The position numbers and the translations under genes are program-made. Shown piece by piece: positions 7,732 through 37,349 of a stretch of 64,000 nucleotides of DNA. This DNA comes from Eubacteriales bacterium (GTDB lineage Bacteria > Bacillota > Clostridia > Oscillospirales > CAG-272). Where the stretch lies: contig JAZOVV010000002.1 in assembly GCA_045658925.1 (NCBI GenBank), forward strand, positions 5,621 to 69,620, given 5' to 3'. Numbering within the stretch: the first letter of the stretch is position 1; every line of letters starts with the position of its first letter. The notes beneath the pieces are model-generated. The model was not told where the DNA came from. It made no database searches and saw nothing but the letters and a program-made list of their open reading frames with translations.

Positions 7732-7775
7732 ATGACCTCCGCGTTTCTGTGAAAAGTGCAAAAATGAAAAAAGGC

Positions 7776-7804: not shown

Positions 7805-7870
7805 AATCTTTGCGAAAAAGGTCGAGCACCGTCAAATGGTGCCAAAATACCACGAAAAGAGGATTACGTT

Positions 7871-12253: not shown

Positions 12254-12313
12254 TGTTGATGTTTTTGCAACATAGCACAATAAAAGAAGAACATTTTAAG
12301 GAGAATGAACTAT

Positions 12314-13933: not shown

Positions 13934-15541
13934 ATGAAACGCATTACAAAAGTACTTATCTTGCTTTTGGCTCTTTGCATGATCCTTCCTTGCATGGCTG
14001 CCTGCGGCGAGAAAAAGGACAACAACAAAAACAAGGGCAACGGCCCCGGCAATTCCCAAAATTCCGGAATTGATATGCCTGAAATCGTCGATATGGACGG
14101 TTATACCTACAAGGCATACGTTCGTGATTTTGCGGGAACCGACCCCGATGCTCACAACGCACAGGTTAACAACGGTAACAATGACTACCGCTGTGTTGAC
14201 TTCTGGGTAGAAGAAGCAAACAGCAACGTAGACGTTATTTCCTATGCCGTATACGGCAGAAACCAACAAATCGAGAATGACTACAACTGCAAAATCAGAC
14301 AGGTAGCATCCGATGGAGACCAAATAGAATTTTTGGTTTCGGCACTTCAAAACGGTACCGGCTACGACTTGACCATTATGATGGCAAAGCGTGCAGCACA
14401 GGCGGCAACGCAAAATCTCTTGAAGAATTTGAAGGCTTCCACTTATATGGACCTTACAAGAGAATCCTTTGACCAAAACGCTATCAAGGAGCTTTCTGTA
14501 AAGGATAAGCTCTACTTCATCAGCGGTGATATGAACATCTCCACCATGGACGTTGCAGGTCTTTCTATTGTTAATATGGCTTTGTATGAGGATTACGCCC
14601 AGGATATTGTAGACGAGTTGTATGGTGGCGACCAAATGTACAGCAACATTTACAACGTTGTTTTGGCTAAAAAATGGACGATGGAAACTCTCTTGACCAT
14701 TGCAACCAAAGCAAACATCGATATCGACAAAACCGACGGTGCACTTCACGCTACCGGTCACGGTACGAACTCTAACCACGAGGTTGTAGAGAACAAGTAT
14801 AAAGGCGGTGACACTGTTGGTTATCACCAATATCTTTACTCCGCACTTTGGTACTTCTACGGCTCCGGCGGTCGTATCACCCAAATGAGCGAGGAGGGCG
14901 TTCCCGAATTTGTAGTTAACACCACCTCTGCCAACACGCTTTACGATTACATCTACAATCATTTTAACCGTAAGCACAACGCAACCTGGATTCCTCACGA
15001 GTCCTCCGACGTTCTGAACTTTAACTTCTTGTCCGGTCAGGTTCTCTTCGCAGACTGCTCTTTGTTCAACGTAAGAACCGAGATTTATCCCTCTGCTCAA
15101 TTCGAGTATGGTATTCTTCCTATTCCTACCCTTGAGGCAGGTATGGATTCCCGCAGTGTTATTTACTTTAACAACTGGGCACACCTTTGGGCGATTCCCC
15201 AAACGACAGAGAATGATGAGTATGCTGAGCGTATGATGGAAATTATGGCTGTTTACTCCAGCCTGCCCGGTTCCACCATGGACGCTTACTACGAAAGAAC
15301 CATCTACCTGCAAGCCGCTAAGGATAACGGCTCTCGCGAGGTTATGGATATGATCAAGGGTTCCTTGGTTTATGACTTTGCTCTCCTGTATGCTTGGGGT
15401 GGTATTGAAACCAACCTTATTCAAAACGTCAACGAAGAGTATGCATACGATAAGATCCAACAAGGCACTATCGACAACGAGACTGCGATGGAAACAACCA
15501 TCAATCAGCTTCTCAATCCCGAAGGAGAAGAAGAGGAATAA
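13934..15541 (+). CDS. Lipoprotein, solute-binding-protein-like (paralog 3 of 3)
   Basis: MKRITKVLILLLALCMILPCMAAC lipobox, AAGGAGA RBS. It is 33 nt after paralog 2 with no hairpin between them and carries the same conserved blocks. Confidence 0.8.
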   Translation: MKRITKVLILLLALCMILPCMAACGEKKDNNKNKGNGPGNSQNSGIDMPEIVDMDGYTYKAYVRDFAGTDPDAHNAQVNNGNNDYRCVDFWVEEANSNVDVISYAVYGRNQQIENDYNCKIRQVASDGDQIEFLVSALQNGTGYDLTIMMAKRAAQAATQNLLKNLKASTYMDLTRESFDQNAIKELSVKDKLYFISGDMNISTMDVAGLSIVNMALYEDYAQDIVDELYGGDQMYSNIYNVVLAKKWTMETLLTIATKANIDIDKTDGALHATGHGTNSNHEVVENKYKGGDTVGYHQYLYSALWYFYGSGGRITQMSEEGVPEFVVNTTSANTLYDYIYNHFNRKHNATWIPHESSDVLNFNFLSGQVLFADCSLFNVRTEIYPSAQFEYGILPIPTLEAGMDSRSVIYFNNWAHLWAIPQTTENDEYAERMMEIMAVYSSLPGSTMDAYYERTIYLQAAKDNGSREVMDMIKGSLVYDFALLYAWGGIETNLIQNVNEEYAYDKIQQGTIDNETAMETTINQLLNPEGEEEE

Positions 15542-19225: not shown

Positions 19226-21589
19226 TTATTTTTCGCGACCCAAATAGAGTGTGCGTCGGTTGATGAGTGCAAAGGAGAGAATGGCAGATGCCACTGTCCA
19301 ACCTAAGTAATACAGGCCAAACGTCATGGGAGTGAGGTAGGAAGAGAGGGAGAGGAGCATCAAAACAAGCGTTCCTACAAAGGAAATAGCCGATGCTGCA
19401 AGCTGTAAACAGAAGCTGATGCGTTTGACCTCATTCACTCTTTTTGCCGCATAGAGCGGATTGACAATGTGTTTTTCACCTCCAAGAGCGACGGCACCTG
19501 TATCCGAAATTTCAAGCAAAGCATCCGACTCATATTTACCGGGCTTGATTACACGTACGGGAATGGCATCCGCATGGCGAATGTCTTGCAAAAATTCCTC
19601 AGTGAGGTTGGGGTTGTAGGATTGAATGGCAACAGAGGTGGTGGAGTCAGCTAAACGCTCGGCAATAATCTCAAATTTGGGGTCAAGGCCATATTCAATA
19701 TCGTAGGTCAATTTGAGAATGCCGTCAACGGCAAAGTACAAAAGCCCTACGTTGTCGGCGCGGCGCAAAGCGCGGTCGGCAGTCTCTTTTGGAATACGGA
19801 TACCGCTCTTCTTCAGAAAGATAGCATCCCCCGCGATCACGTGGTATTGATTGTCGATAATCGCTTCCACCCCCGTATCTGCAATACGAACAAAAGCAAC
19901 GTTGGGGTCGGCAGATTTGGTAGCGGTTGCCTTGCCGATTTCTTCCAAGCTACCGCCAATTTTGCGGAAGAGGATGCCCGCCAGCTTCAAATCGCGGCGC
20001 AGATCGTCGCTCTTATCGCGAACCGCCAATTCCGAGCAGTTCAGGGCGCGGCAGAGACGGTAATCGTTGAAAATAACGGTTTTGGATTCGTTGTATTCTT
20101 CTACGGCTTCTTCACCAAGCAGGGCGCAGTTCTTGCGCGTGAGCAGATTGTTTGCGTGACTGAGGGGGAAGAAGAAGCCAAAGCAAGCGGCTCCGGGCAA
20201 ACCGAGCACAGTTACCGTTGCAAATGCGTTGAGCGCATCACCGAGACCGTTGGTCAGGGCAAGCACAAAGCCTGCCAAAAATCCAAGGATGAGCGGGAGC
20301 GTCAGCAGTATACGGAAAGGTGCGTTGGCGGCTTCCATTTCGTTAAAACGGCGGAAGAAGCCCATCGTCAGCTGGGCATTGTGAACGTGATAGAAGTTTT
20401 CATCAAGGTCATCGTTGATGATCTTAATCAGCTTTTTGCCCTGACGGAGCTTCTTTTTGCGAAGCTCGGTGGGGTCAAGCACGGTTTTTGGCGCATCGGT
20501 TGCCAAAAGGCGGAAGACACGCATTTCACTTGTCAGGCGGAAGATATCGCATATGCAAATGAGGAGCAGAGCACCCGTTGCCACACAGTTGAGGTGAACC
20601 AAGGGGATTTGCCCTATCATTGCTACGATGTCGTAGAAAAGGACAAAGGGGACAATGACTGATAGTGTTGAATAGGGCGTGGGACGAAGCTTGAAATAGC
20701 TACGAATGCCCGCATTGAATTGCTTGTAGGAAAGCACGGTTGCCGCCACCATAACAACGGTAGAGAGAATGGGGAAGAAGAGCGGCACAGATGCATCGAA
20801 TGCCTCGTATCCACCGCCGATGAGAGCGGGATAGTCCAAAAGCACTACCAAGAAGAGTGCGAGGAACGTGAGCAGTGTGCGCAGGATCAAATAACGGCGG
20901 TCGTGCATATATTTTGCAATCGATCGCGTTTTGTTTTGGGGTGTGATCGAATCTTGACCGCAATAACCAAAAGCTGTGCGGTAACGCTTGCTGCTCTCGC
21001 GCGACATACGGTGCAAGTGATCATATTTCAGCTTTTTGAGGTTATCGTATCCAACAAGACGGCCGAATTCGTTTTCGTAGCCAAGCTCAAAGATCATTTC
21101 AATGTCGTCATCCGAAAATCCGCTGCGGCGGCGAATGATCTCCATGGCAGTCATTTTCTTTTCTGCCAAAGCCTCGCGGCGCATTTTCATGCGTTGCAAA
21201 AGGTTTGTCGGCTTGGGGGGGCGCTGAATTTCCTCGGGAGCGTCTACGGGAATCTCCTCGGGAACCGAGAAATCGGCATCTATAAACTCGTCAAATGCTT
21301 CATCGAGTGCCTCGTCCAAGTTTTCATCACGAGAGCGTTGCGTTTGCCCAATGGTTTGCAAAGGACGAACACGCTTGCGCGGCGGAACCTTTTTCGCACT
21401 CGCAGAGGAAGTGCCGGATGCAGCCTTTTGCGTTGTTCCTTCCGCCTTTTGCGAGGTGGGAAGCGATGTGTTTGCCGGCTTTTTATGTATATTCGATTTT
21501 GCTTGCGACGTCGGGGGAGTCGTCTTTTTTTGTTCGGATGCTACCGCATTTTTTGCTTTCGAGAGCTCCGAATTTTGATTCTCTTTCAT
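19226..21589 (-). CDS. P1B-type-ATPase-like membrane protein with degenerate catalytic motifs and a disordered N-terminal extension
   Basis: LGEEAVEEYNESKTVIFNDYRL aligns to GG.ALE......VVFDKTGTLT. GVEAIIDNQYHVIAGDAIFLKKSGI aligns to the N-domain G.GV.a.v.g..v.vGn..l. QSYNPN replaces TGDN, GGEKHIVNP replaces GDGxNDxP, and LPG replaces CPC. Confidence 0.8.
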   Translation of the reverse strand: MKENQNSELSKAKNAVASEQKKTTPPTSQAKSNIHKKPANTSLPTSQKAEGTTQKAASGTSSASAKKVPPRKRVRPLQTIGQTQRSRDENLDEALDEAFDEFIDADFSVPEEIPVDAPEEIQRPPKPTNLLQRMKMRREALAEKKMTAMEIIRRRSGFSDDDIEMIFELGYENEFGRLVGYDNLKKLKYDHLHRMSRESSKRYRTAFGYCGQDSITPQNKTRSIAKYMHDRRYLILRTLLTFLALFLVVLLDYPALIGGGYEAFDASVPLFFPILSTVVMVAATVLSYKQFNAGIRSYFKLRPTPYSTLSVIVPFVLFYDIVAMIGQIPLVHLNCVATGALLLICICDIFRLTSEMRVFRLLATDAPKTVLDPTELRKKKLRQGKKLIKIINDDLDENFYHVHNAQLTMGFFRRFNEMEAANAPFRILLTLPLILGFLAGFVLALTNGLGDALNAFATVTVLGLPGAACFGFFFPLSHANNLLTRKNCALLGEEAVEEYNESKTVIFNDYRLCRALNCSELAVRDKSDDLRRDLKLAGILFRKIGGSLEEIGKATATKSADPNVAFVRIADTGVEAIIDNQYHVIAGDAIFLKKSGIRIPKETADRALRRADNVGLLYFAVDGILKLTYDIEYGLDPKFEIIAERLADSTTSVAIQSYNPNLTEEFLQDIRHADAIPVRVIKPGKYESDALLEISDTGAVALGGEKHIVNPLYAAKRVNEVKRISFCLQLAASAISFVGTLVLMLLSLSSYLTPMTFGLYYLGWTVASAILSFALINRRTLYLGREK

Positions 21590-25201: not shown

Positions 25202-25984
25202 TCAGTTCAACTTATACTTAAGCCTCAAATTATCGGCAATCATGGCAATAAACTCGGAGTTGGTGGGCTTGCCGCGGTTGTTTTGAATGGTATAGCCAAA
25301 ATAGGAATTGAGCGTATCGACGTCGCCTCTATCCCAAGCAACCTCAATGGCGTGACGGATAGCACGCTCCACGCGGCTGGTAGTGGTGGCGTACTTCTTG
25401 GCAACGCTGGGGTAGAGCACCTTTGTTACCGAGTTGATAATATCCGAATCCTTAATGGTCAAAAGAATTGCCGTGCGCAAATACTGATAACCCTTGATAT
25501 GTGCGGGAACACCGATTTGATGAATGATTTGCGTGACTTGCGATTCGATATCAGGACCTTTTTCAACCTCTTGCATCGCCACAGCGGGAATATCCTGCAC
25601 GCGACGGGTAGCAATGTTTTGAATGTGTTCGGCAAGGCTGACGAGATTAACGGGCTTGAGTAAACAAAGCTCCGCGCCCGCCTCGGATGCCTGAATAAAA
25701 ACGTTTTGGTTGGAAACGGAGGATACTACAATAAAGGAAGGTGCTTTGTCGCTGCCCCAATCCATTGTACGTGCGTTGCGAAGAACGCCAATACCGTCGA
25801 GCTTAGAGAGCCAAACGTCAAGAAGAACCACCTCGGGGTGAATTTGCGACATTTTGAGTACGGCTTCTTCACCGTTGACCGCTTCCTCTATGTTTCTGTA
25901 TCCTGCGCGCATTAACCCTTCACGCACCTGTGCACGCCAAATGGGGCTTTCATCGGCAATTAAAAGTTTTGTTTTGTATTCCAT
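25202..25984 (-). CDS. spo0A: Sporulation master regulator Spo0A
   Basis: Receiver domain (LLDVWL...LDG, LLKPV) plus Spo0A-specific effector motifs [32 protein letters not shown] and [18 protein letters not shown]. Confidence 0.95.
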
Positions 25985-26059
25985 AAGTCAATTATTCCTC
26001 CAACTTTCATTTTGTTATGACAGTAATATTTTACCATAAATGTAATAATTTTACAATAT

Positions 26060-26100
26060 AAAACAAGAAAAAATATTCCCCAAAAATTTTGGGGAATATT
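26060..26100 (-). terminator. Terminator upstream of the spo0A promoter region
   Basis: AATATTCCCC (26072..26081) pairs with GGGGAATATT (26091..26100); U-run on the minus transcript (plus-strand A-run about 26061..26071). Confidence 0.6.
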
Positions 26101-26136
26101 TGGTAAATTTTACCAAGTTGGTAGTCGATTTATCGC

Positions 26137-26526
26137 TCAATGAGAGTGTTTACAGGGTTCTTTGAAGAAATCTGTCAAATCCATCTCAAATCTGCCGTCG
26201 GCATTGCGCGAAAAACCGATGGCTTTTACAAGCGTTTCATTGTCGCATTTTGCGTCAAAATAGGCGCGGTGAACACCGCAGAGGTCAATAAAATTGAGTG
26301 CGGCGCGCCCCATAACGAACATTGGCTCAAACTCATACTTTTCGGGAACGTTTGCAAAATCAACGATAGAGCCGCCATCCTTGTTCATTGTGAACTGACA
26401 CATGCCAAAGAGTTCTCCGTCCACCAAAGCCTTGTAAGCCAAGAGCTCGGTGCGATAGGGTATGCCGCAAAGGTTGGCAATCGCTTCTTGTTCGCTTTTA
26501 TCTTGAATCGGTAATACTTCCAGCAT
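26137..26526 (-). CDS. Hypothetical protein (129 aa)
   Basis: ATG 26526 with AAAGGA upstream; 5 nt after the rluB stop. I recognise no motif. Confidence 0.65.
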   Translation of the reverse strand: MLEVLPIQDKSEQEAIANLCGIPYRTELLAYKALVDGELFGMCQFTMNKDGGSIVDFANVPEKYEFEPMFVMGRAALNFIDLCGVHRAYFDAKCDNETLVKAIGFSRNADGRFEMDLTDFFKEPCKHSH

Positions 26527-26531
26527 AGTCT

Positions 26532-27242
26532 TTATCCTTTCTTTTTACCTGTTGTCAGGTACTGTACTTCGTCGGAGGTCAGCTCGCGCCACTTGCCAAG
26601 AGGGAGCTCACCCAATCTCAAATCTCCAATGGCGATGCGTTGCAGGCGGATGACTTTGAGTCCCGCGGCCTCGCACATGCGGCGGATTTGACGGTTTCGC
26701 CCCTCATAGAGATTCATTTGAACCGTGTCGGGAGCTAATTTTTTAACGGTGACGGGCTGCAAACGGTAGCCGTCAAGCTCCATCGGGGCGCGAAGCGCCG
26801 AAACCTCTTCCTTGGAGAGCACCTTGGAGAGCGTTACGTGATAAATTTTGGGAATTTCGTGGCGAGGATGCGTGAGTTGATTGGCGAATTCGCCGTCGTC
26901 GGTCAAAAGGAGCAAGCCCTCGGAGTCCATATCAAGACGGCCGACAGGGTAGACACGCACACCGACGCCCGATGTGAGGTCGGCAACGGTAGGGCGTCCT
27001 TTTTCGTCCTGCATCGTGGTCACGTATCCGCGCGGCTTGTTGAGCATAATATAGCGGCGTTTTGCGCTCGTGCGAGGCAAAATGCGCTTGCCTTTGTATT
27101 CGACAATATCAACCTCAGGGTCAACAGAGTCGCCGATTTGAGCGACAGCGCCGTTCACTTTGACTTTACCCGCGGCAATTTCAGCCTCGGCGGCTCTGCG
27201 CGAAAGTATGCCACAGTCCGAAAAGAATTTTTGCAACCGCAT
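26532..27242 (-). CDS. rluB: Pseudouridine synthase, RsuA/RluB family
   Basis: S4 N-domain (MRLQKFFSDCGILSRRAAE) and catalytic-Asp motif GRLDMDSEGLLLLTDDG. Confidence 0.9.
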   Translation of the reverse strand: MRLQKFFSDCGILSRRAAEAEIAAGKVKVNGAVAQIGDSVDPEVDIVEYKGKRILPRTSAKRRYIMLNKPRGYVTTMQDEKGRPTVADLTSGVGVRVYPVGRLDMDSEGLLLLTDDGEFANQLTHPRHEIPKIYHVTLSKVLSKEEVSALRAPMELDGYRLQPVTVKKLAPDTVQMNLYEGRNRQIRRMCEAAGLKVIRLQRIAIGDLRLGELPLGKWRELTSDEVQYLTTGKKKG

Positions 27243-27307
27243 TCTGTCGCCTCCTTTGTTTTATATGTTAGTGAGTTATTTTCTTCCTTAATTATATGTG
27301 CTCTTTA

Positions 27308-28477
27308 TCAAGAGAACAGTCTTTGCCACCAAAGCAAAAAGCGTTGCCACAGAGTCAGACGTGATGGATGCTTTGAAATGCCGTATTGGGCAATGAGCGG
27401 AACGTCACCGACTGTTTCTTTGATGCCGTCATTGTTTGTGTCACAATAAAAGAGCATTCGTCCGCAAACGTCTCCTTCCTTTACAGGCGCGAAAAGATGA
27501 CGCGGACATTGGATGGTTTGTTCAATTACGCCCGCCCCGTTGGGAAGCGTGGCAGAAACTCCTTGCGCCACTCCAAGAGTAACGTAAGCTTCCTTGCCGC
27601 CCACAACGGGCAGGCAAAGGTGAAAATCGGCAGGGCAGAGCTCTACCGAACGGTAATTGGAAAATCCAAAATCCAAAAGCTTGGTATGGTCATTCCAATC
27701 GTCGGGGGAATCAATGGTTACCGCAATCATCACAACACCGTCTCGCTCGGCGGCAGACACCAAGCAACGGCCGCTTTTTTGCGTGTATCCGGTTTTCACA
27801 CCGATGCACCCATCATAAAGGCGGAGCATTTTGTTGTGGTTTACCAACAAACGCACGCCATCGGTATTTTGATGTGAAATCGTCGTTTTTCTTGTTGAAA
27901 CAATGGTTTTGAGTAAAGGATTTTTCAAAGCCTCTCGCGCGATGACAGCCAGCTCGTAGGCTGTGGTATAATGCGCCTCTGCATCCAATCCGTGTGGATT
28001 GGCAAAGTGTGTGTCAGAGAGGCCAAGAGCAGTTGCTTTGGTGTTCATCGCATCCACAAAGGCATCAAGGCTTCCCGATACGCCAATCGCAATGGCAACG
28101 GCGGCATCGTTCGCCGATTCAAGCATTAGGGCATACAAAAGCTCCTCAAGTGTTAGCTCCTCGCCTTCACATAAATAAATGGAAGACCCCTCTGTGCCAA
28201 CCGCACTCCCATCCACCGCAATGACAGTATCGGGAGCTGCAAGCTCGAGAGCCACAAGAGCGGTCATAATTTTGGTGGTGCTTGCCATGGGCAGACGCGT
28301 ATGGGCGTTTTTTTCGTATACGGTCGTGCCGTTCTCGGCCTCCATTAAAAAAGCACTTTGTGCAGAAAGGGAAGGGGGAGAGGTTATTGCTTCTTGCGCA
28401 TTTGTTGGAAGAATAAGTGCACCAAAAGCCAAAAGCAATGCCCCCAAAAGGCTTAAAATCTTGCGAATTTTCATCAT
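27308..28477 (-). CDS. dacB: D-alanyl-D-alanine carboxypeptidase (peptidase S11, DacB/DacF-like)
   Basis: SxxK ASTTKIMT, SxN ESANDAA, KTG VKTGYT. Signal peptide from MMKIRKILSLLGALLLAF; GGAGGG lies upstream of ATG 28477. Confidence 0.9.
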   Translation of the reverse strand: MMKIRKILSLLGALLLAFGALILPTNAQEAITSPPSLSAQSAFLMEAENGTTVYEKNAHTRLPMASTTKIMTALVALELAAPDTVIAVDGSAVGTEGSSIYLCEGEELTLEELLYALMLESANDAAVAIAIGVSGSLDAFVDAMNTKATALGLSDTHFANPHGLDAEAHYTTAYELAVIAREALKNPLLKTIVSTRKTTISHQNTDGVRLLVNHNKMLRLYDGCIGVKTGYTQKSGRCLVSAAERDGVVMIAVTIDSPDDWNDHTKLLDFGFSNYRSVELCPADFHLCLPVVGGKEAYVTLGVAQGVSATLPNGAGVIEQTIQCPRHLFAPVKEGDVCGRMLFYCDTNNDGIKETVGDVPLIAQYGISKHPSRLTLWQRFLLWWQRLFS

Positions 28478-28570
28478 AAATAACACCCTCCGGAAAAAAT
28501 ACATTTGGTAATGTATATTTTTCCGGAGTGCGTTTTATGTCATTTTAGCGGATGATTTCTTCCAAGCGGA

Positions 28571-31500
28571 TTATTTTACCGTACCGCTGTCAAGCGTCTT
28601 TTCGGAAATCTTACCGCGCTTGTTGTGAGGAACAGGAGCCTGTTCAGCAGCCTGTTTCTTAGCAAGCTTGCGAGCCTTTCTTTCGGCGCGCTTGTTAACC
28701 TTAGCGGGCTTCATAGGCTCAATGGATACCTTAGCGAGATTAACCTCACCCTCGGCAATAATACCTTCGGCTTGAGCAACCTGCTTCTTAACTTCGATAA
28801 GGGCATCCTTTTCAGCATCAATAACAGCATGCTTTTCTGCTTCGCTTGTAGCCTGTGCCAAAGCAACCTTCAAAACGTCGAGCTCTTGCTCCAGAGCGTT
28901 GAGTCTCTCTTGTTGAGCTGTGAGAATCTTGCCGGTTTGAGCAGCCTTTTGAGCCTTGGTTACACCCTTCTTCTTTGCCTTGACAATAGCTTGCTTTTGA
29001 GCTTCGAGGATAGAGAGCTTTTCAAGATCGCTTTGGGCTGCGGCGTAAGCCTCGTCGTAACCGACCATTTCAGCCTCGAATACTTCTTGTTCTGCCTTCT
29101 TTACAAGGATATCCTTTTGCTCCTTGAGCATATTCTGTCTTTCGGCATCGATGAGTTCTTGCTTTTGTCTTGCTGTTTCAGCAGCCAAGAGGGCAGAATT
29201 GAATGCAGCAACCTCTGCCATCAGCTTTGCATAATCCTCACCGGACTTGGTTACGCCGCGCTTCTTAGCCTTGATAACGGCTTTTTCTTGAGCATCAAGC
29301 AGTTCGTTTTGCTCTTTGCGCGTTTTTGCATTGGCAAGGGCGGTATTGAGAGAGGACATCTCTGCTTCAAACGCAGCTTGTTCTTGGCTTACAACGGGAG
29401 CCTGATATTCGGGAGTGAGGAGCAATGCCTTTTCGGCATCGATGAGCGCCTGCTTCTCTTGTGCGGTGCGAGCCGCAAGGAGAGCTGCATTGAATGCTGC
29501 AACTTCGGCCAAGAGCTTTTCGTTGCCTTCGTATGCGCTGGTGCGACCCTTCTTTGCTTTCTTTTCCTTAACAATAGTTTGCTTTTCTGCATCCAGAATA
29601 GCGGTTTGTTGTTCAGCAGATTTTGCATTGGAGAGAGCAACGTTCAAAGCTTCCATCTCAGCCTCAAAGCGAGCCAATTCTGCGGAATCCTTATCGGTCT
29701 TCAGCTTGGTGGGCTTGAGCATAGCAACCTTTTCGGCTTTGATGATGCTCTTTTGCTCTTGCAGAGTTTCTGCGGCAGCGAGAGCAGCGTTGAATGCTTC
29801 GATTTCCTTGATGATTTGACTGTCGTCGAACTTTGTTAAGCCCTTCTTCTTTGCATCAACAATGGTTTTAGCTTCTGCATCAATAATGGATTTCTTTTGA
29901 GCGGGAGTTGTTGCACTTACCATAGCGGCAAGGAGTGCGCTCATCTCATCATTGAATTGAGATTGCTGTGCGAAAGGCTGAGTTGCTCTGGGCGTAACCA
30001 TAGCTTTTGCTTCGGTTTGAATAATCGCCTGTTGTTGCGGAGCAGTATTTGCAGCGGCGAGAGCAGCGTTGAATGCGGCGATTTCTTCCATTGCGGTGGT
30101 CATGTCGCCGGACTTGGTCAAGCCGCGTCTCTTTGCATTTACGATAGTTTGCTTTTGCTTCTCTACAACGGTTTGCTGTTCTGCGGGAGTTCTTGCATAC
30201 AGCATCATGTTGTTGAGAGATGCCATTTCAGCTTCAAATTGAAGCTGCTCGGGAGTTTTACCATCTGCTTGAGAAACCGTAGGTTGAGTCATAACCTTGG
30301 TTTCGGTTTGAATGATAGCTTGTTGTTGGGGAGCAGAGGTAGCAGCAGCGAGGGCAGCATTGAATGCGGCAACCTCAGCCATAGCGGTAGCTATGCTGCG
30401 AGAATTGGTAACGCCTTTTTGCTTAGCCTTAACAACGGATTTCTTTTGCTTTTCAGTAACAACCTTTTCCTGTGCGGGAGTTTTAGCAGCGAGGAGCTCT
30501 TTGTTCAGAGCTTCCATTTCGGCCTCGAAAGCGAGTTGTTCAGCAGACTTACCGGTGGGTTCTGCTGCAGGTTCGAGCATAGCTCTTGTTTCGGCTTGAA
30601 TGATAGCTTGTTGTTGAGAAACAGTAGTTGCAGCAGCGAGGGCAGCATTGAAAGCGGCAACCTCAGCCATAGCGGTGGTTACAGCACGAGACTTGGTAAC
30701 ACCCTTTTGCTTAGCATTAACAACAGCTTGTTTTTGTTTTTCAACAACTGCTTGTTGTTGTGCAGGAGTCTTGGCAGCTTTGAGTTCCTTGTTCAAAGCT
30801 TCCATTTCAGCTTCGAAAGCGAGTTGCTCTGCGGTCTTACCTGCGGAAGGTTCAACCATAGTCTTTGCTTCTGCTTGGATGATAACCTGCTGTTGGGAAG
30901 CGGTGGTAGCAGCGGCGAGGGCGGCATTGAAAGCGGCAACCTCAGCCATAGCGGTGGCAATTCTGCGAGAATTGGTAACGCCTTTCTGCTTAGCCTTAAC
31001 AACGGTTTGTTTTTGTTGTTCAACAATTTCTTGTTGCTGTGCAGGGGATTTAGCGGCGAGGAGTGCTTTGTTCAAAGCATCCATTTCAGCCTCAAAAGCG
31101 ATTTGCTCTGCGGTCTTACCAACAGATTCTTCTGTCTTGGGATCGATCATAGCCTTCGCTTCGGTTTGGATAACAGCTTGTTGCTGTTGAGCGGTAGTAG
31201 CCGCGTTGAGAGCCGCGGTGAAGGCAGCAACTTCAGCCATGGCATTTGCTATGTTGCCGGACTTGGTGACGCCTTGTCTCTTTGCCTTAATGATAGATTG
31301 TGCTTGCTTTTCTGCAACGATTTGTTGTTGCTCGGGAGTTTTAGCTGCCAGGAGTGCCTTGTTGAGAGCATCCATTTCTGCCTCAAAGGCGATCTGTTCT
31401 GCAGTTTTGCCTGCAAATTCAGAGGGAGCAAGCATAGCTTCTGTTTCAGCTCGAATGATAGCTTGTTGTTGAGGAACAGAAGACGCAGCGTTGAGAGCGG

Positions 31501-34500
31501 CGGTGAAAGCAGTAACTTCTGCCATCAACTGAGCCATTTCCTTGTCGGATTTGGTAACGCCGCGCTTTTTAGCCTTAACAACAGCTTGTTGTTGTTTTTG
31601 AATAACAGTTTGTTGTTGTGCAGGAGTCTTAGCAGCGAGGAGCTCTTTATTCAGAGCGGCCATCTCAGCCTCGAAAGCGAGTTGCTCAGCGGTCTTGCCA
31701 ACGGGTTGAGCAGGCTCAACCATAGCCTTTGTTTCGGCTTGAATAATGGTTTGTTGTTGAGCAGCAGAGGTAGCAGCGGCGAGGGCAGCATTGAAAGCGG
31801 CAACCTCAGCCATAGCGGTAGTTACGCTACGAGAGTTGGTAACACCCTTTTGCTTAGCATTAACAACAGCTTGTTGTTGCTTTTGAATAACAGTTTGTTG
31901 CTGTGCAGGAGTCTTAGCGGCGAGGAGCTCTTTATTCAGAGCGGCCATCTCAGCTTCGAAAGCGAGTTGCTCAGCGGTCTTGCCAACGGGTTGAACGGTG
32001 GGGTCAACCATAGCATTTGCTTCGGATTGGATGATAACTTGTTGTTGGGAAGCGGAGGTAGCAGCGGCGAGGGCAGCATTGAAAGCGGCAACCTCAGCCA
32101 TAGCGGTAGCAATACTGCGGGACTTGGTAACACCCTTTTGCTTAGCATTAACAACAGTTTGTTGTTGCTTTTGAATAACAGTTTGTTGCTGTGCAGGAGT
32201 CTTAGCGGCGAGGAGCTCTTTATTCAGAGCAGCCATCTCAGCCTCGAAAGCGAGCTGCTCAGCGGTCTTACCAGCGGGTTGAGTTGCAGGTTCAACCATA
32301 GCCTTGGTTTCGGATTGGATGATAACTTGTTGTTGAGCAGCAGAGGTAGCAGCGGCGAGGGCAGCGTTGAAAGCGGCAACCTCAGCCATAGCGGTAGCTA
32401 TGCTGCGAGAGTTGGTAACACCTTGCTTCTTTGCCTTAACGACGGTTTGCTTTTGCTTTTCGATGACTGCTTGTTGTTGCGCAGGAGTCTTAGCGGCGAG
32501 GAGCTCTTTATTCAGAGCGGCCATCTCAGCCTCGAAAGCGAGCTGTTCGGCGGTCTTAACAGTTTTGATTTGTGCAGGAGCAGCCTTTGTCATTGCATTC
32601 TTTTCGGCAATGATAACAGCCTGTTTTTGTTCGGCTGTTTTTGCTGCAGCGAGAGCAGCATTGAAAGCGGCGATTTCTGCCATCAGAGCCTTATTGCGCG
32701 CATCATTGCGAGAAACGCCTTGCTTCTTGGCCTTTACAATGGTCTGCTTTTGCTTTTCGATAATAGCTTTTTGTTGCTCGGGAGTCTTAGCGGTGGAGAG
32801 GGCAGAGTCAAGTGCGTTCATTTCGGACTCAAACTTTGCTTGCTCTCTGGTCTTGGTAGCAGTTTTTTCTGCTGCGGGACCAACCATAGCCTGCTTTTCG
32901 GAACGGATCACAGCATATTTTGCCTGAGGAGTCTTGGCGTTGTTGTAAGCGGCATTAAAAGCAGCGATTTCTGCACGGAGTTGGTCATCGTTAGAAGCTT
33001 TAGCAGCGCGTTGCTTCTTTGCTTTGATAATAGCTTGCTTTTCAGCCTCGATAACAACCTGCTTTTGTTCCTCTGTCTTTGCAGTCTTGAGCTCGGCGCC
33101 AAGAGTATTCATCTCGGCTTGGAATTGGGTTTGCTCTGCAGTAAGAACAGGAGCCTGTTTTGCAGGCTTAAGCATAGCCTTCTTTTCTGCTTGAATTACA
33201 GTATGCTTTTGCTTGGGAGTTTGTGCCATTGCAAGAGCAGTGTTGAATGCCAAAATTTCTGCGTCGATAGACTCGGGAGTAGCAGTCTTTGCCATGCGTT
33301 GCTTCTTTGCCTTGATAACAGTCTGCTTTTGAACGTCGAGAATAGCTTTCTTTTCTTCCTCGGACTTAGCGGACTTCAGTGCGGTATCGAGCGTATTCAT
33401 ATCGGACTCGAACTGCATTTGTTCCTGGGTCTTAACGGTTGCACGGGCAGGTTGAAGCATAGCTTTCTTTTCTGCCTCGATAATAGTCTGCTTTTCTTCG
33501 GGAGTTCTTGCAGCCTGAACAGCAGCATTGAACTCTGCGATTTCAGCATCGACAACGGTGGGAGCGGTGGAGTAGGAAGCGAGAATTTCTTTTTCTGCTT
33601 CGATAATAGCCTGCTTTTCTGCAGGAGTGCTTGCTGCGAGAAGGGCAGCGTTAAATGCCATAATTTCGGCTTGAATTTGAGCTTCTCTCTCTTCGGGAGT
33701 CATAGCGGCAACACGTCCGCTCTTCTTGCCGCCAACGACAATGGAGGTAGAATCGTATTGAACGGGAGCAGTAGCTGCGAGAGCCTGTTGTTCAAATGCG
33801 ATTTGAGCTTGCTTTTCGCCCTCAAGCTGAGCGTCGACCTGAGCCTCGGCAAGAGCAGTTTGGAGATATGCTCTTTCTTCGGGAGTTTGAGCAGCTTCCA
33901 GAGCCATATTGATGGCCATGATATCTGCTTGGATTCTTGCCATCTTTGCTGCGCTCTTGTCTGCTTTCTTTTGCAGCTTTGCAGCTTCTTTTTCTCTCTT
34001 CTTTTGTGCTTTGATTTCAAGCTTCATTTGCTTGCGACCAACTCTGGACTCGGCATATGCCTCACCCTCGTCGGAGGAGAGGATCTGCTCGGTTGCCATA
34101 GCGGCGTCATCGGCGAACATAGGAGCCACTGCAACGTCTGCATCGGCAATGAGTTGTTCCTCGTATTCTTGGGCAAGTTCAGGCTGAACGTCGACATCGA
34201 CATCCACACTTGCCGAAGATTCCTGATAACCGTTCATCAACACGTTCTTGATACGGCCGACGATGTCGGGAGAGTTGTAGATAAGGTCTGCAACGACCTC
34301 TACGGGGGAGAGCTTTTCCGACGTCATGGGGATCATATCCACCTTGCCCTCGGGGGTGATGGTCAAAAAGCCAACGGGAATGACGCTAACGCCGGTTCCA
34401 CCAACACCGCCAAAGTTTTTCTTTCCGCCCTCAATAGCAACTTTTGTGGGCAGATCCAAGCCACCTGTTGCGATACCCATAGAGAGCTTGGAAATCGGAA

Positions 34501-34621
34501 TAATCACCATGCCGCTAGAGGTAACGATCTGCTTACCAACAATAGTGTCCGCATCAATAATGGTGCGCACTTGTTCCAGCGAATTCCGGATTATTTCCTT
34601 GATCGAAGATTCGTTTTCCAT
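28571..34621 (-). CDS. ytfJ: YtfJ/GerW-domain sporulation protein fused to an about 1850-aa tandem-repeat tail (2016 aa)
   Basis: N-terminal 130 aa: EQVRTIIDADTIVGKQIVTSSGMVIIPISKLSMGIATGG...FGGVGGTGVSVIPVGFLTI, a YtfJ family match. The rest is A/Q/E/K-rich repeats with no stop codon. Confidence 0.85.
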   Translation of the reverse strand: MENESSIKEIIRNSLEQVRTIIDADTIVGKQIVTSSGMVIIPISKLSMGIATGGLDLPTKVAIEGGKKNFGGVGGTGVSVIPVGFLTITPEGKVDMIPMTSEKLSPVEVVADLIYNSPDIVGRIKNVLMNGYQESSASVDVDVDVQPELAQEYEEQLIADADVAVAPMFADDAAMATEQILSSDEGEAYAESRVGRKQMKLEIKAQKKREKEAAKLQKKADKSAAKMARIQADIMAINMALEAAQTPEERAYLQTALAEAQVDAQLEGEKQAQIAFEQQALAATAPVQYDSTSIVVGGKKSGRVAAMTPEEREAQIQAEIMAFNAALLAASTPAEKQAIIEAEKEILASYSTAPTVVDAEIAEFNAAVQAARTPEEKQTIIEAEKKAMLQPARATVKTQEQMQFESDMNTLDTALKSAKSEEEKKAILDVQKQTVIKAKKQRMAKTATPESIDAEILAFNTALAMAQTPKQKHTVIQAEKKAMLKPAKQAPVLTAEQTQFQAEMNTLGAELKTAKTEEQKQVVIEAEKQAIIKAKKQRAAKASNDDQLRAEIAAFNAAYNNAKTPQAKYAVIRSEKQAMVGPAAEKTATKTREQAKFESEMNALDSALSTAKTPEQQKAIIEKQKQTIVKAKKQGVSRNDARNKALMAEIAAFNAALAAAKTAEQKQAVIIAEKNAMTKAAPAQIKTVKTAEQLAFEAEMAALNKELLAAKTPAQQQAVIEKQKQTVVKAKKQGVTNSRSIATAMAEVAAFNAALAAATSAAQQQVIIQSETKAMVEPATQPAGKTAEQLAFEAEMAALNKELLAAKTPAQQQTVIQKQQQTVVNAKQKGVTKSRSIATAMAEVAAFNAALAAATSASQQQVIIQSEANAMVDPTVQPVGKTAEQLAFEAEMAALNKELLAAKTPAQQQTVIQKQQQAVVNAKQKGVTNSRSVTTAMAEVAAFNAALAAATSAAQQQTIIQAETKAMVEPAQPVGKTAEQLAFEAEMAALNKELLAAKTPAQQQTVIQKQQQAVVKAKKRGVTKSDKEMAQLMAEVTAFTAALNAASSVPQQQAIIRAETEAMLAPSEFAGKTAEQIAFEAEMDALNKALLAAKTPEQQQIVAEKQAQSIIKAKRQGVTKSGNIANAMAEVAAFTAALNAATTAQQQQAVIQTEAKAMIDPKTEESVGKTAEQIAFEAEMDALNKALLAAKSPAQQQEIVEQQKQTVVKAKQKGVTNSRRIATAMAEVAAFNAALAAATTASQQQVIIQAEAKTMVEPSAGKTAEQLAFEAEMEALNKELKAAKTPAQQQAVVEKQKQAVVNAKQKGVTKSRAVTTAMAEVAAFNAALAAATTVSQQQAIIQAETRAMLEPAAEPTGKSAEQLAFEAEMEALNKELLAAKTPAQEKVVTEKQKKSVVKAKQKGVTNSRSIATAMAEVAAFNAALAAATSAPQQQAIIQTETKVMTQPTVSQADGKTPEQLQFEAEMASLNNMMLYARTPAEQQTVVEKQKQTIVNAKRRGLTKSGDMTTAMEEIAAFNAALAAANTAPQQQAIIQTEAKAMVTPRATQPFAQQSQFNDEMSALLAAMVSATTPAQKKSIIDAEAKTIVDAKKKGLTKFDDSQIIKEIEAFNAALAAAETLQEQKSIIKAEKVAMLKPTKLKTDKDSAELARFEAEMEALNVALSNAKSAEQQTAILDAEKQTIVKEKKAKKGRTSAYEGNEKLLAEVAAFNAALLAARTAQEKQALIDAEKALLLTPEYQAPVVSQEQAAFEAEMSSLNTALANAKTRKEQNELLDAQEKAVIKAKKRGVTKSGEDYAKLMAEVAAFNSALLAAETARQKQELIDAERQNMLKEQKDILVKKAEQEVFEAEMVGYDEAYAAAQSDLEKLSILEAQKQAIVKAKKKGVTKAQKAAQTGKILTAQQERLNALEQELDVLKVALAQATSEAEKHAVIDAEKDALIEVKKQVAQAEGIIAEGEVNLAKVSIEPMKPAKVNKRAERKARKLAKKQAAEQAPVPHNKRGKISEKTLDSGTVK
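28790..33950 (-). repeat. In-frame coding tandem repeats: about 35 half-modules (45-50 aa) arranged as about 16 A+B double units
   Basis: A module is MAEVAAFNAALAAA.S..QQQ.IIQ.E.KAM. B module is AEQLAFEAEMAALNKELLAAKTPAQQQ.VI.KQ.Q.VV.AK.KGVT. GK(T/S)(A/P)EQ recurs at aa 785, 880, 975, 1071, 1168, 1261, 1357 and 1454. Confidence 0.9.
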
Positions 34622-35424
34622 AATGAATGATCCTTTCGTATACGTGTTAATATATTTTTTAAATCAAATCGAGGTTTGTTGCGCTTTTCGCGTTTACGGA
34701 GAGCCGCTTTGCGATAGGCGATTTTCTTTTCTGCATCGTAGGCGTTTACCATATCTATAAAGATGAAGATTGCACGCCAAATTTTTGCAGAGAGGACGAT
34801 ATCAACATCTGCACTGCATTCGGAGGATGCATAATCGGGATCCACCGAAAGGTCACCGTCCCGTCTTTCAAGGGCGGTGTAGTTGTCTTCTACGTATGCA
34901 ACAATGCGATAAACGAGTTGAGCCACAACACCGTAAAGGATTGCGGTGTGTGCCGCCTCATCGGCGGATACGCGAATGTGCAGCTTGTTTACTTTGATTC
35001 TGATCTTGCCGCGTGTTTTATGATAAAACTTTTTGAGCAATGCCAAAATCATTTCGAGGTTTTCTTTTAGATTGGGAACAGGGCAATACTTTTGCGGAAT
35101 ACCGATTTTTTTCTCGGCACGCTTTGCCGCACGCTTTGCCGCTTTTTCCTTTTTGCGCTCGGCTTTTTCCTTTGCGCGTTGTTGCCGTTTCAATTCCCGT
35201 CGCAAAACAGCCTCGGGATTACGGCATCGGGCAAGATTTCTCGGTTTTTTCGGGGCATCCTTTTTATCCGGATAGATTGTAAAGGAAATACCGCAGATCG
35301 AAGCCACAACGCGTATCCGATCCTTGCTGATAACGCGAAGCTTTGCGTTACCAAAGAAGAAGATCAGTACGGCTGAGACGAGAAGCACGCCGAGTATAAT
35401 TAATATAGTAATCAATGCAGTCAA
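34591..35424 (-). CDS. ytfI: DUF2953/YtfI-like sporulation membrane protein
   Basis: TTG start 35424 lies 7 nt after AAGGAGGAA and overlaps the scpB TGA. N-terminal TM helix; position directly upstream of ytfJ as in B. subtilis ytfI-ytfJ. Confidence 0.7.
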   Translation of the reverse strand: MTALITILIILGVLLVSAVLIFFFGNAKLRVISKDRIRVVASICGISFTIYPDKKDAPKKPRNLARCRNPEAVLRRELKRQQRAKEKAERKKEKAAKRAAKRAEKKIGIPQKYCPVPNLKENLEMILALLKKFYHKTRGKIRIKVNKLHIRVSADEAAHTAILYGVVAQLVYRIVAYVEDNYTALERRDGDLSVDPDYASSECSADVDIVLSAKIWRAIFIFIDMVNAYDAEKKIAYRKAALRKREKRNKPRFDLKNILTRIRKDHSLWKTNLRSRK

Positions 35425-36185
35425 GGCAGTTCCTCCTTATCATCGGAGTCAGCCGTGGGAGGCGGTGCTGCGGAGAGTGCCTCAATGGCAACGTCTTCCT
35501 CTTCGCCGTCAACCGGTTCGGTGTATTCACTCGGGATTGCCTCGTCATCCACCTCAAATGCCAGTTGTTCTGCCTCTTCGGTTTCTTGATTTGTCTCCGA
35601 TCCTTCTGCCTGTGCGGCTGCCACACTCAAAGCCTCGGTTTCGGGGAGCTCGTCAAGAGCATTGAGCCCGAATACGCGAAGGAATTTGTCTGTGGTGACG
35701 TAGAGCATTGGACGACCGGGTGCATCAAGACGTCCGGCGGCTTCTATCAGACCCTTATCGAGAAGAGAGTTGACGGCATAAGAGCTATCCACACCGCGCA
35801 CCAAATCGATATACGATCTTGTTACGGGTTGGTTGTAGGCGACCACCGCAAGCACTTCCATAGAAGATGCCGAGAGGTTTCCGCCGCGGCGAATGCCGAG
35901 TGCTTCTCGGATGTAGGGGGCGTAACGCTCCTTGGTAGCAAGCTGACAGGTGGTGGGATAAAGCAAGAGTTGAATGCCGTGGTGTGTATCTTCAAGAGCG
36001 AAATGCTCCGACATAGAACGCACCAAGGTTTTAACGTCTTTCGTGCTCAAGCCCAAAAGCTCACCCAGCTTATCATATCGCATCGGGTAACCGGCTGCAT
36101 ACAGGATGGCTTCGATTGCCTGTTTTAAATCCTGTTCGCTTGTCAGCTGCTCGAGGAATGGAGCGGCTTCTTTCTTTTGTTCCAT
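35421..36185 (-). CDS. scpB: Segregation and condensation protein B
   Basis: IEAILYAAGYPM, EVLAVVAYNQPVTRSYIDLVRGV, GRPMLYVTTDKFL; acidic C-terminal tail. Confidence 0.9.
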   Translation of the reverse strand: MEQKKEAAPFLEQLTSEQDLKQAIEAILYAAGYPMRYDKLGELLGLSTKDVKTLVRSMSEHFALEDTHHGIQLLLYPTTCQLATKERYAPYIREALGIRRGGNLSASSMEVLAVVAYNQPVTRSYIDLVRGVDSSYAVNSLLDKGLIEAAGRLDAPGRPMLYVTTDKFLRVFGLNALDELPETEALSVAAAQAEGSETNQETEEAEQLAFEVDDEAIPSEYTEPVDGEEEDVAIEALSAAPPPTADSDDKEELP

Positions 36186-36215
36186 AATATCTGCGCTAAA
36201 TCCTTTCGGGAATTT

Positions 36216-37349
36216 TTAGTTACTGTCATCGGGCAGGTTTTTTGCCTGCTGTGCCATCGATTTGATAATATCGTTCATATCTAAGCCGATATCGTCCAAG
36301 ATGTCCTCGTCATCCTCAGAGAGTTGATCGTCAAGCATCTGTGCAATCTTGGCTTCGGCTTCAAGGTCGCTGTCGTCCTCGGGAATAATATCAGCCTCGA
36401 TCAAGGTCTGACCCATTGCCTCTTCCTTGGCACGGCGGCGTTCCTCGGCACGGCGAGCGCGCTCTTCGGCACGCAAACGCTTCTTTTCGGCAAGCTTTGC
36501 TTCGCGAATGATGCGTCTTTGCTCGCGGTGCATTTCCGCCTTGGAGGAGAGGGGAATAGGCTCGTCTCCGTGAACGGCGGGATTGTATTCTTTTTCTTCC
36601 TCACCCTCGGCGGGGGGCGCATCGTTTACAACAAAGCGCGTATCAACGCCGTGAATAACGGTGTAGGAATCGGGATCTTCATCAATCAAAATTTTGCGAA
36701 CCTTAACAAGCTCCAAAATACCCAAGAAAATGGCGATCATATCATTCAGCGATACGGCGTCGTGCAAGAGCTCCTGCATCGAGGTATCTCTCTTGCGGGA
36801 CATTCTGTGAAGAATACCCACAATTTTCACGTCAACGGGAATAATGGGCTTGGCAACCAAGGGTGCAAAGGTTTGTCTTTCCGCGCGCGGGCGCGATTCG
36901 TTTGCCGCAATGATGCGGCGGACAGCGGCACAAAGCTGCGTCACTTCTTGGTCGGCAACGTAGGTGGTATCCACCGAAATTTCGTCGGTGTCCTTGACCA
37001 TACGGCCGCTATAGGTTTGGTAAAGGGGAATCATTTTTGCCACAGCCTGCTTTGCTTGCTGATAACGCAAGAGGGCTTCGGCAAGGTCGGCACGGGGATC
37101 CTTCTCGTCTTCCTCAACCTTGGGGAGGAGCAAGCGGCTCTTGATGAGCATCAGTTCGCTCGCCATAACGATGAATTCGCCCGCGATCTCCATATCCATA
37201 TCTTGCGCCGCCTTGAGATACTCAAGGTATTGGTCGCAGATGAGCGCGATGGGAATATCGATAATATTCACTTTGTTCTTTTGGATCAGCATCAAAAGCA
37301 GGTCAAGAGGACCTTCAAACTGATCCAATCGGTAGGTGAGTGCTTCCAT
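36216..37349 (-). CDS. scpA: Segregation and condensation protein A (kleisin) with long charged C-terminal extension
   Basis: LDQFEGPLDLLLMLIQKNKVNIIDIPIA N-terminal kleisin motif; 377 aa versus about 250 typical. Confidence 0.9.
   Translation of the reverse strand: MEALTYRLDQFEGPLDLLLMLIQKNKVNIIDIPIALICDQYLEYLKAAQDMDMEIAGEFIVMASELMLIKSRLLLPKVEEDEKDPRADLAEALLRYQQAKQAVAKMIPLYQTYSGRMVKDTDEISVDTTYVADQEVTQLCAAVRRIIAANESRPRAERQTFAPLVAKPIIPVDVKIVGILHRMSRKRDTSMQELLHDAVSLNDMIAIFLGILELVKVRKILIDEDPDSYTVIHGVDTRFVVNDAPPAEGEEEKEYNPAVHGDEPIPLSSKAEMHREQRRIIREAKLAEKKRLRAEERARRAEERRRAKEEAMGQTLIEADIIPEDDSDLEAEAKIAQMLDDQLSEDDEDILDDIGLDMNDIIKSMAQQAKNLPDDSN

Follow-up and report, generated by a model that had tools for sequence, protein, structure and literature searches.

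Is a YtfJ/GerW protein of 2016 amino acids (aa) a real gene product and, if so, what might its long tail be for? The question is raised by a 64,000-nucleotide (nt) stretch of an Eubacteriales bacterium genome (assembly GCA_045658925.1, contig JAZOVV010000002.1), referred to below as the window, whose own positions are used throughout. Members of this sporulation-associated family are normally small single-domain proteins of about 130–240 aa. The giant ytfJ/gerW gene of the window is one open reading frame (ORF) on the minus strand (28571..34621), with an ATG start and 2016 codons plus stop. Its computed product has a mass of 215 kDa and an isoelectric point (pI) of 8.6, and contains three His but no Cys or Trp. 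An earlier reading of the letters without database searches (hereafter the sequence-only reading) had described a 2016-aa ORF at this place, leaving its minus strand unstated, and a tail lacking Cys and Trp. Both the ORF and the composition are as described, and all elements of that description of the sequence are present. We found that the protein joins a YtfJ/GerW domain to a conserved C-terminal peptide through a long array of helical hairpins, and we regard this architecture and its evolutionary history as near-certain. The giant repeat-tailed YtfJ has not been described previously, although the YtfJ/GerW family itself is known.

The gene is real and intact, with repeats under purifying selection. 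Comparison of the 15 regular units of the array shows pairwise DNA identities of at most 91% and a longest exact shared stretch of 72 nt. Differences between units are mostly synonymous in the ytfJ frame (median pairwise ratio of nonsynonymous to synonymous substitution rates, dN/dS, 0.22). The ceiling on identity and the synonymous divergence argue against assembly duplication and against a decaying pseudogene, and the gene is unlikely to be either. Complete orthologues of 953–2333 aa have the start and the C-terminus in common with it.

The opposite strand carries an ORF of 1577 aa (29897..34630, plus strand). We rejected it as an alternative gene because it runs antisense codon for codon and encodes Leu/Ser/Gly/Phe/Cys-rich nonsense. 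It stays open since the sense gene uses TTA, CTA or TCA only once in 2016 codons. Gene callers could mis-annotate this antisense ORF.

The YtfJ/GerW domain and the hairpin array

YtfJ/GerW is among the conserved sporulation genes of most endospore formers (bioRxiv 10.1101/2022.02.25.481979). The N-terminal domain of the window protein (residues 1–135; 34217..34621, minus strand) is a genuine member, as the sequence-only reading had proposed. Pfam Spore_YtfJ (PF09579) matches residues 33–114 (E 1.2e–13, 51.5 bits, gathering cutoff 25). NCBIfam TIGR02874, ‘GerW family sporulation protein’, aligns to residues 6–129 (model positions 3–122 of 125) with 75.4 bits, which is below its equivalog cutoff of 116.3. 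That cutoff is also missed by the tested members of the same clade, the 235-aa protein P0018 (94.5 bits), the 137-aa protein L026 (86.9 bits) and the giant P0001 (86.6 bits). Since short members fall under it too, the low score is a property of a divergent lineage and not an effect of the tail. The family core is complete, with 23 of the 23 invariant columns of an 81-sequence alignment present. The listed homologues in a search with the domain only (best 120 of 205) are 116–237 aa long.

Three near-invariant positions of the domain are altered (F50I, S52T and G73V). F50I and S52T are common to the longest-tailed sub-clade, and G73V, which sits in an otherwise near-invariant GGGGG loop, is carried outside the window protein only by the orthologues L006 and L001. 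The giants fall into two sub-clades by domain motif. MGFASGG marks L003, L008 and L009 (953–1248 aa), and MGIATGG marks the window protein, L001, L002 and L004–L007, whose complete members have 1405–2333 aa. The domain is laid out as a helix, beta-hairpins with a Gly-rich loop (FGGVGGTG) and a second helix. An AlphaFold2 (AF2) monomer model reached a predicted local distance difference test score (pLDDT) of 72 and a predicted template modelling score (pTM) of 0.41. This moderate confidence of the monomer may point to oligomerisation. No significant match to the domain was found in the PDB, either by sequence or with the 81-sequence profile. Foldseek comparison of the model with the PDB gave a best E-value of 0.22 (SSB/PriB, TM-score about 0.2), which we treat as no match.

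Behind the domain, on the same strand, lies an acidic linker (about residues 136–195; 34037..34216; net charge –12 over residues 136–200), which is also present in short-tailed relatives. It is followed by a Lys-rich basic stretch, RKQMKLEIKAQKKREKEAAKLQKKADK... (residues 196–232; 33926..34036; net +10), whose counterpart in the short relatives is the KKRLKKEEKERKKQEK stretch and which is 81–92% identical in more distant giants and 100% identical in L006. Degenerate proximal hairpins and a non-repeat spacer, delimited by layout and hmmsearch segmentation (residues 233–354; 33560..33925), lead into the array proper, which consists of 16 double units of two modules, A and B (residues 355–1893; 28943..33559). 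Distal to the array, one last degenerate hairpin, a spacer and a second Lys/Arg-rich stretch (residues 1894–1995; 28637..28942) precede the conserved C-terminal peptide PVPHNKRGKISEKTLDSGTVK (residues 1996–2016; 28574..28636). The more degenerate copies that had been noticed at both ends of the array are therefore found on the proximal and on the distal side. The basic C-terminus had been noticed as well, and the last 56 aa indeed have a pI of 10.7 and a net charge of +11.

The tail is rich in Ala (22%) and in Lys, Gln and Glu (about 10% each) and holds 52 Pro; for the giant protein, Gly amounts to 2.1% and the grand average of hydropathy (GRAVY) to –0.32. Sixteen A anchors (A[FI][NT][AST]A) and sixteen B anchors (F[EQN][ASD][ED]M) recur at a spacing of 93–100 aa. 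The sequence-only reading was right about some 16 alternations of the two modules, and its period of 93–97 aa was slightly too narrow. At 30300–32558, Tandem Repeats Finder detects 7.9 copies of a 288-nt period (score 2176). This segment is the recently amplified core of the array (about residues 689–1441; 30300..32558, minus strand), whose units are nearest to their own paralogues (76–90% aa identity). Modules A and B are themselves homologous (hhalign probability 97.5%, E 7e–12, 36 columns). Hence, the elementary unit is a module of about 45–53 aa, present about 36 times in all. The A module (about 43 aa; acidic within the array core) and the B module (about 53 aa; basic) are each predicted to form a helix-turn-helix hairpin. 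Net charge in the array core is –2 to –3 for A and +2 to +4 for B, and the array as a whole is almost neutral (net +6 over 1728 aa). The peptides AEVAAFNAALAAATSAAQQQ and TAEQLAFEAEMAALNK are examples of sequence unique to the tail.

We modelled three consecutive double units with AF2, using an alignment of 13 three-unit windows from the window protein and two orthologues. The model (pLDDT 71.6, pTM 0.65) has 12 helices of 15–20 residues and 74% helix content. Helices are paired into hairpins by 3-residue turns, Thr-Pro caps the second helix of the B hairpins, and low-confidence linkers of 8–10 residues that contain Pro and Gly lie between hairpins. Hydrophobic moments of the tail helices are very low (0.03–0.24). 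The prediction describes either hairpins joined by flexible links or a loosely wound solenoid, and no continuous coiled coil. A long coiled coil of the M protein or SMC-arm type is excluded by the short, proline-punctuated helices. The suggestion of alpha-helical modules in the tail thus agrees with the model and with the A/B homology, whereas the term ‘fibrous’ does not suit hairpins of 15–20-residue helices joined by Pro/Gly linkers.

Searches for a known relative of the repeat were negative. Pfam scans of two-unit and other tail pieces at E ≤ 10 returned only noise far under the cutoffs (PLRV_ORF5, T7 capsid assembly and the like). PDB sequence searches with a two-unit segment and with a profile of the AB unit gave nothing significant, the best matches being low-complexity ones to MIS12 and SIN3. 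Foldseek comparison of the three-unit model with the PDB reached at best E 0.81 and TM-scores of at most 0.2; these non-significant matches included 14-3-3, MO25 and designed helical-repeat proteins. The tail repeat is a new helical repeat family without a Pfam or PDB relative, in line with the sequence-only reading, which had assigned the tail to no described family.

Several known systems nevertheless share some of its traits. HEAT and TPR alpha-solenoids are likewise built of helix-turn-helix units of about 45–50 aa in dozens of copies; the giant YtfJ differs from them by the lack of a Pfam match and by the low-confidence Pro/Gly linkers of 8–10 residues after every hairpin. Ebh/Embp (FIVAR-GA) and spectrin-like rods are very long arrays of helical modules of about 45–130 aa, and the Ebh/Embp-type proteins are secreted and anchored to wall or membrane. 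The giant YtfJ resembles Ebh/Embp in its long helical-module array and, locally, in a motif F-N-A-x-x-x-A-K-T-x-E-E. Membership in the FIVAR/GA (Ebh-like) group, which this motif suggested, was rejected, as there is no FIVAR or GA Pfam match at E ≤ 10, no PDB match and no secretion signal or anchor. BclA of the Bacillus anthracis/cereus exosporium has conserved ends and collagen-like repeats whose variable copy number sets its physical length. It forms a GXX collagen triple helix, is glycosylated, is made by the mother cell and lies outside the spore. Conserved ends around copy-variable internal repeats are common to both proteins; the giant YtfJ differs in its helical hairpins, its YtfJ domain and the absence of an export signal. 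In concept, copy-variable spore proteins such as BclA and giant helical-module rods such as Ebh come nearest to it, but they are exported.

Distribution and origin of the giant form

A word-index search with the full protein returned two orthologues of 1248 and 1157 aa. One orthologue, MBE6566466.1, is named ‘hypothetical protein’ and comes from a Ruminococcaceae/Oscillospiraceae metagenome-assembled genome (MAG). An exhaustive HMMER search with an A+B profile against 1.84 billion representative proteins (E ≤ 1e–3) gave 15 matches, including one complete form of 1054 aa. The inspected matches were orthologues or fragments of giant ytfJ, except for two unrelated repeat proteins (P0140 and P0141); the other low-scoring matches were short pieces on small contigs. 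Among these 1.84 billion proteins the hairpin repeat is confined to one gene lineage. A search with the C-terminal 112 aa found only eight fragmentary orthologues and no protein outside the orthologue group. Hence, within the reach of this tool, the peptide is no general targeting signal.

We also scanned one genome per GTDB species and obtained 31 loci. Giant YtfJ occurs in nine species. Six of these proteins are complete (953, 1157, 1248, 1405, 1828 and 2333 aa), and three more are cut at contig ends. All complete giant orthologues share a common start and a common end. The non-giant YtfJ proteins of the 31 loci have 137–300 aa. Giant forms come without exception from uncultured MAGs of ruminant gut or faeces, with water-buffalo caecum as one source. 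The window gene is, as judged from these comparisons, the YtfJ/GerW orthologue of an uncultured clade of ruminant-gut Clostridia (Oscillospiraceae/Eubacteriales-type MAGs). Whether giant forms occur in related Clostridia was a check proposed with the sequence-only reading, and both the search with the tail profile and the genome scan found them.

Species just outside the giant clade carry a YtfJ of 179–300 aa (189–300 aa where the C-terminal peptide is present). In these short-tailed proteins the domain is followed by an acidic linker, then a KK-rich stretch and, at the C-terminus, a ...KRGKISEKTLxxGxxK/R peptide. The closest short forms, L010 (300 aa) and L011 (265 aa), already carry a helical Ala-rich segment, TEEELAEAIAAIEAAQAAAE, directly before PVPHNKRGKISEKT, at the site of the array. 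The short-tailed YtfJ proteins of Oscillospiraceae-type MAGs (L010, L011 and the 235-aa P0018) are therefore like the giant in domain, linker, Lys-rich stretch, C-terminal peptide and locus, and unlike it in having no A/B hairpin repeats. The short relatives contain no A or B anchor, and the giants add about 650–2000 residues. The peptide PVPHNKRGKISEKTLDSGTVK is 90–100% identical in all complete giants and 57–81% identical in the short-tailed proteins of neighbouring species.

The first four and the last five units of the array are positional orthologues across species. Central units are 76–90% identical to paralogues in their own protein versus 41–70% to units of other species, a pattern that marks tandem amplification of mid-array units within single lineages. 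In L006, the nearest genome, the flanking proteins are 96–100% identical, the YtfJ domain is identical (100%) and the giant protein has 1828 aa. This protein is 94–100% identical to the window protein throughout and differs from it by exactly two indels, one of 96 and one of 95 aa, each a clean whole unit and both lying in the amplified core. More distant giants retain 91–93% identity in the YtfJ domain, 90–100% in the C-terminal peptide and 55–75% in the scored parts of the array. We read the following course of events from these comparisons. An array of hairpins of about 45–53 aa arose between the Lys-rich stretch and the terminal peptide of a short-tailed form. The hairpins became organised as alternating acidic A and basic B modules, and the 96-aa A+B unit was then amplified by tandem duplication, to 16 units here and roughly 5–20 in relatives.

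Genomic context and expression

The gene order lon-ysxC-M50 peptidase-scpA-scpB-ytfI-ytfJ-dacB-rluB-orf129-spo0A is kept in 31 of 31 loci as far as the contigs extend, and across these syntenic loci ytfJ alone varies in length, from 137 to 2333 aa. The window genes located below lie on the minus strand. Directly upstream of ytfJ is a ytfI-like gene (34591..35424) that encodes an N-terminal transmembrane (TM) helix, a Lys/Arg-rich region and a DUF2953 domain scoring 20.2 bits against a cutoff of 22. Orthologues from seven of eight loci tested pass this cutoff (22.9–29.4 bits). With the near-cutoff score, the passing orthologues, the TM helix and the synteny across 31 loci, the ytfI-ytfJ pair can be taken as preserved, as had been noted earlier. 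The adjoining upstream block (35421..37349) holds scpB (35421–36185, Pfam SMC_ScpB) and scpA (36216–37349, Pfam SMC_ScpA). The block downstream of ytfJ (25202..28504) contains a dacB-like gene for an S11 carboxypeptidase (27308–28504), an rluB-like gene (26532–27242), orf129 (26137–26526) and spo0A (25202–25984; TIGR02875, 261.7 bits).

Compared with Bacillus subtilis YtfJ/GerW, the window protein is alike in an N-terminal domain that is homologous over its whole length, in the ytfI/DUF2953 gene directly upstream and in conserved surroundings of housekeeping and sporulation genes, among them dacB, rluB and spo0A. It is unlike it in being about 13 times longer, in scoring below the TIGR02874 cutoff and in the coupling of the locus to scpB. 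The ytfI gene overlaps ytfJ by 31 nt (34591–34621), and its TTG start overlaps the scpB stop (TTGA, 35421–35424) behind an AGGAGG Shine-Dalgarno sequence. These two overlaps suggest cotranscription and translational coupling of scpA-scpB-ytfI-ytfJ, as opposed to a separate ytfIJ sporulation operon. No terminator-like site was found by the terminator scan between the genes from scpA to orf129 on the minus strand. Pattern scans for sigma70 promoters and for terminators gave background levels. Between scpB and ytfJ, neither strict nor loose patterns for sigmaF, sigmaG, sigmaE or sigmaK promoters were present, although the clade’s own consensus sequences may differ.

Between orf129 and spo0A lies a hairpin (26071–26101) with a perfect 14-bp stem, AAATATTCCCCAAAA...TTTTGGGGAATATTT, and T-rich sequence after it on both strands. 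No terminator-like hairpin detected beyond scpA on the minus strand is stronger, and its pattern makes it a probable bidirectional terminator.

In B. subtilis, gerW/ytfJ is sigmaF-dependent and forespore-specific, and its product is soluble (PMC4366231). Forespore expression of the giant YtfJ would be an assumption carried over from there. The sequence-only reading had placed the protein in the forespore or the spore envelope. The first placement came from Bacillus and is weakened by the lack of a sigmaF/G promoter pattern, by the coupling of ytfI to scpB and by the detection of YtfJ in vegetative cultures. The second disagrees with the sequence of the giant protein, in which we found no signal peptide, TM segment or wall anchor. 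Beyond spo0A and the dacB-like gene, no sporulation-specific gene was recognised among roughly 40 scanned ORFs of the 64-kb window.

Possible functions of the tail

A conserved domain and a conserved terminal peptide enclose a growing, selected, in-frame array of up to about 2000 residues. This points to tail and peptide as functional parts of YtfJ. Overall, we suggest, with about even odds, that giant YtfJ holds a helical spacer or scaffold, specific to this lineage and variable in length, between its two conserved ends. The spacer function taken by itself is more tentative and perhaps somewhat less probable than that. The protein would be cytoplasmic and, if regulated as in Bacillus, would reside in the forespore. 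Its YtfJ domain would probably act with the co-translated membrane protein YtfI. The array would act as an extended alpha-helical spacer or scaffold that can be adjusted in length, with length or valency as the relevant property, and would hold the C-terminal basic peptide and any binder of it apart from the YtfJ domain. With its 36 hairpins stacked at roughly 1 nm per hairpin, the array could measure about 35 nm; strung out, it could reach well over 100 nm. By such simple geometry, a physical length of tens of nm is our guess. The term ‘spacer-like’ of the sequence-only reading fits two strongly conserved ends around an array of variable length.

Several points weigh against this proposal. 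The function of the giant protein is one that we infer. The three-unit model matches no solved fold, and its hairpins may pack either as a stacked solenoid or as beads on a string. We know of no partner of the C-terminal peptide. Short-read assembly may have understated the copy numbers in MAGs. The scans showed no promoter of sporulation type, and translation of ytfI is coupled to that of scpB, so a sporulation-timed expression in the forespore would be an assumption. The parent YtfJ/GerW is itself without a known function or mutant phenotype (PMC4366231). Moreover, YtfJ has been detected in vegetative cultures of Ruminococcaceae, namely Ruminococcus flavefaciens and the non-sporulating Faecalibacterium duncaniae (PMC3672088, PMC13020158).

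A bolder form of the spacer proposal, which we consider rather unlikely, is that the undescribed alpha-helical repeat fold works inside the cell as a ruler or tether that can be tuned genetically. With its membrane anchor provided by YtfJ-YtfI, it would place the C-terminal peptide and its partner (RNA, nucleoid or protein) at a set distance, and whole-unit changes in copy number would tune that distance between strains. If true, this would give a first functional handle on the conserved and enigmatic YtfJ/GerW family.

Two other roles for the tail seem improbable to a similar degree, each somewhat more so than the ruler. The tail might act by mass and not by length, protecting the spore core in bulk as it dehydrates or serving there as a reserve, be it as an LEA-like (late embryogenesis abundant) ‘molecular shield’ of helical protein, as a crowding or matrix component or as a store of Ala, Gln, Glu and Lys degraded at germination like the small acid-soluble proteins. 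A composition rich in Ala, Lys, Glu, Gln and Thr and free of Cys and Trp would suit such a role, and a large, variable copy number would scale the amount of material. Group 3 LEA proteins and hydrophilins are defined by LEA Pfam matches, Gly above 6%, high hydrophilicity and amphipathic 11-mer repeats. The giant YtfJ shares their composition, helicity and repetitiveness, and a role in a dehydrating compartment is conceivable; it differs in a period of 48/96 aa instead of 11 and in its low Gly content, hydrophilicity and hydrophobic moments. No LEA or other Pfam family was matched at E ≤ 10, the Gly content of 2.1% and GRAVY of –0.32 fall short of what is usual for hydrophilins, and moments of 0.03–0.24 are unlike those of class-A amphipathic LEA or apolipoprotein helices. 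For these reasons of moment, composition and Pfam result, we disfavoured LEA-like or apolipoprotein-like amphipathic helices as a class for the tail. Although the parent is a soluble spore protein (PMC4366231), which accords with bulk storage, position-specific conservation (F, M and the TP turn) together with the dN/dS of 0.22 indicates a defined fold, and the strongly conserved C-terminal peptide would be left unexplained. The other role is that of a nucleic-acid or nucleoid scaffold functionally linked to the adjacent ScpA/ScpB genes (SMC, structural maintenance of chromosomes), in which the Lys-rich stretches and the C-terminal peptide would bind RNA or DNA and the array would bridge or organise it. 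The coupling of ytfI to scpB and the lack of a terminator-like site from scpA to orf129 speak for it, but the scpAB-ytfIJ synteny is found equally in species with a 137-aa YtfJ and is thus uninformative on the tail. Two Lys/Arg-rich segments of about +10 each flank the array, whereas the array itself is nearly neutral. GerW was recovered with the RNA-binding proteome of B. subtilis late in sporulation (bioRxiv 10.1101/2025.03.21.644579), and the top, non-significant fold matches of the YtfJ domain are to SSB/PriB OB (oligonucleotide/oligosaccharide-binding) folds; these matches, however, are at noise level (E 0.2–1, TM-score about 0.2), and no known nucleic-acid-binding domain was detected with Pfam.

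Still less credit is due to a functionless runaway expansion of repeats, an incipient pseudogene or a mis-assembly, which we consider very unlikely. Copy number is indeed highly variable (953–2333 aa), many metagenomic contigs break inside the gene, and the exact window protein is absent from a collection of about 15 billion proteins. Yet 6 kb remain in frame, and the complete orthologues too end at the conserved C-terminus; the repeats diverge mainly at synonymous sites (dN/dS 0.22), the absence of any unit pair above 91% nucleotide identity makes collapse or duplication artefacts unlikely, and the indels in L006 are exact whole units. Least probable of all, and barely worth entertaining, is a secreted or surface fibril comparable to Ebh/Embp, M protein or the BclA exosporium nap. 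Giant helical repeat arrays whose copy number varies are characteristic of surface proteins in Gram-positive bacteria, but here a signal peptide, TM segment, LPXTG motif and S-layer or cell-wall-binding domain are all lacking, as is any FIVAR, GA or collagen match. YtfJ has been recorded in the extracellular proteome of R. flavefaciens (PMC3672088); this detection is compatible with cell lysis, and the family of the N-terminal domain is reported as soluble and intracellular (PMC4366231).

The locus offers material for experiments. YtfJ tails form a natural length series in one fixed locus (137 aa, 180–300 aa and 953–2333 aa), and the peptide, the Lys-rich stretches and the hairpin units are concrete reagents. 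A practical limit is that all carriers are uncultured gut MAGs. The case is also unusual in that a giant repeat expansion has occurred in an apparently intracellular protein and not in a surface protein.

Elsewhere in the window, we recorded several further genes. Three tandem paralogous predicted lipoproteins of 517, 531 and 535 aa (10648–12201, 12305–13900 and 13934–15541, plus strand) are 43–47% identical to each other; each has a lipobox Cys, an Asn/Lys-rich linker and a long antisense ORF, and none has a Pfam match at E ≤ 1e–5. An ORF at 785–4150 (minus strand) encodes a Lys/Glu/Asp/Thr-rich protein of 1121 aa with one N-terminal TM segment, and its antisense partner (728–4156, plus strand) is a nonsense ORF of 1142 aa without a Pfam match. 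The 787-aa protein encoded at 19226–21589 (minus strand) has a Ser/Thr/Pro/Lys-rich N-terminus and several hydrophobic, probably TM, segments, and has no NCBIfam or Pfam match. Finally, a 241-aa protein (7120–7845, minus strand) contains a nucleoside-recognition domain of the ‘Gate’ type (PF07670, 31 bits), as known from the spore maturation proteins SpmA and SpmB.

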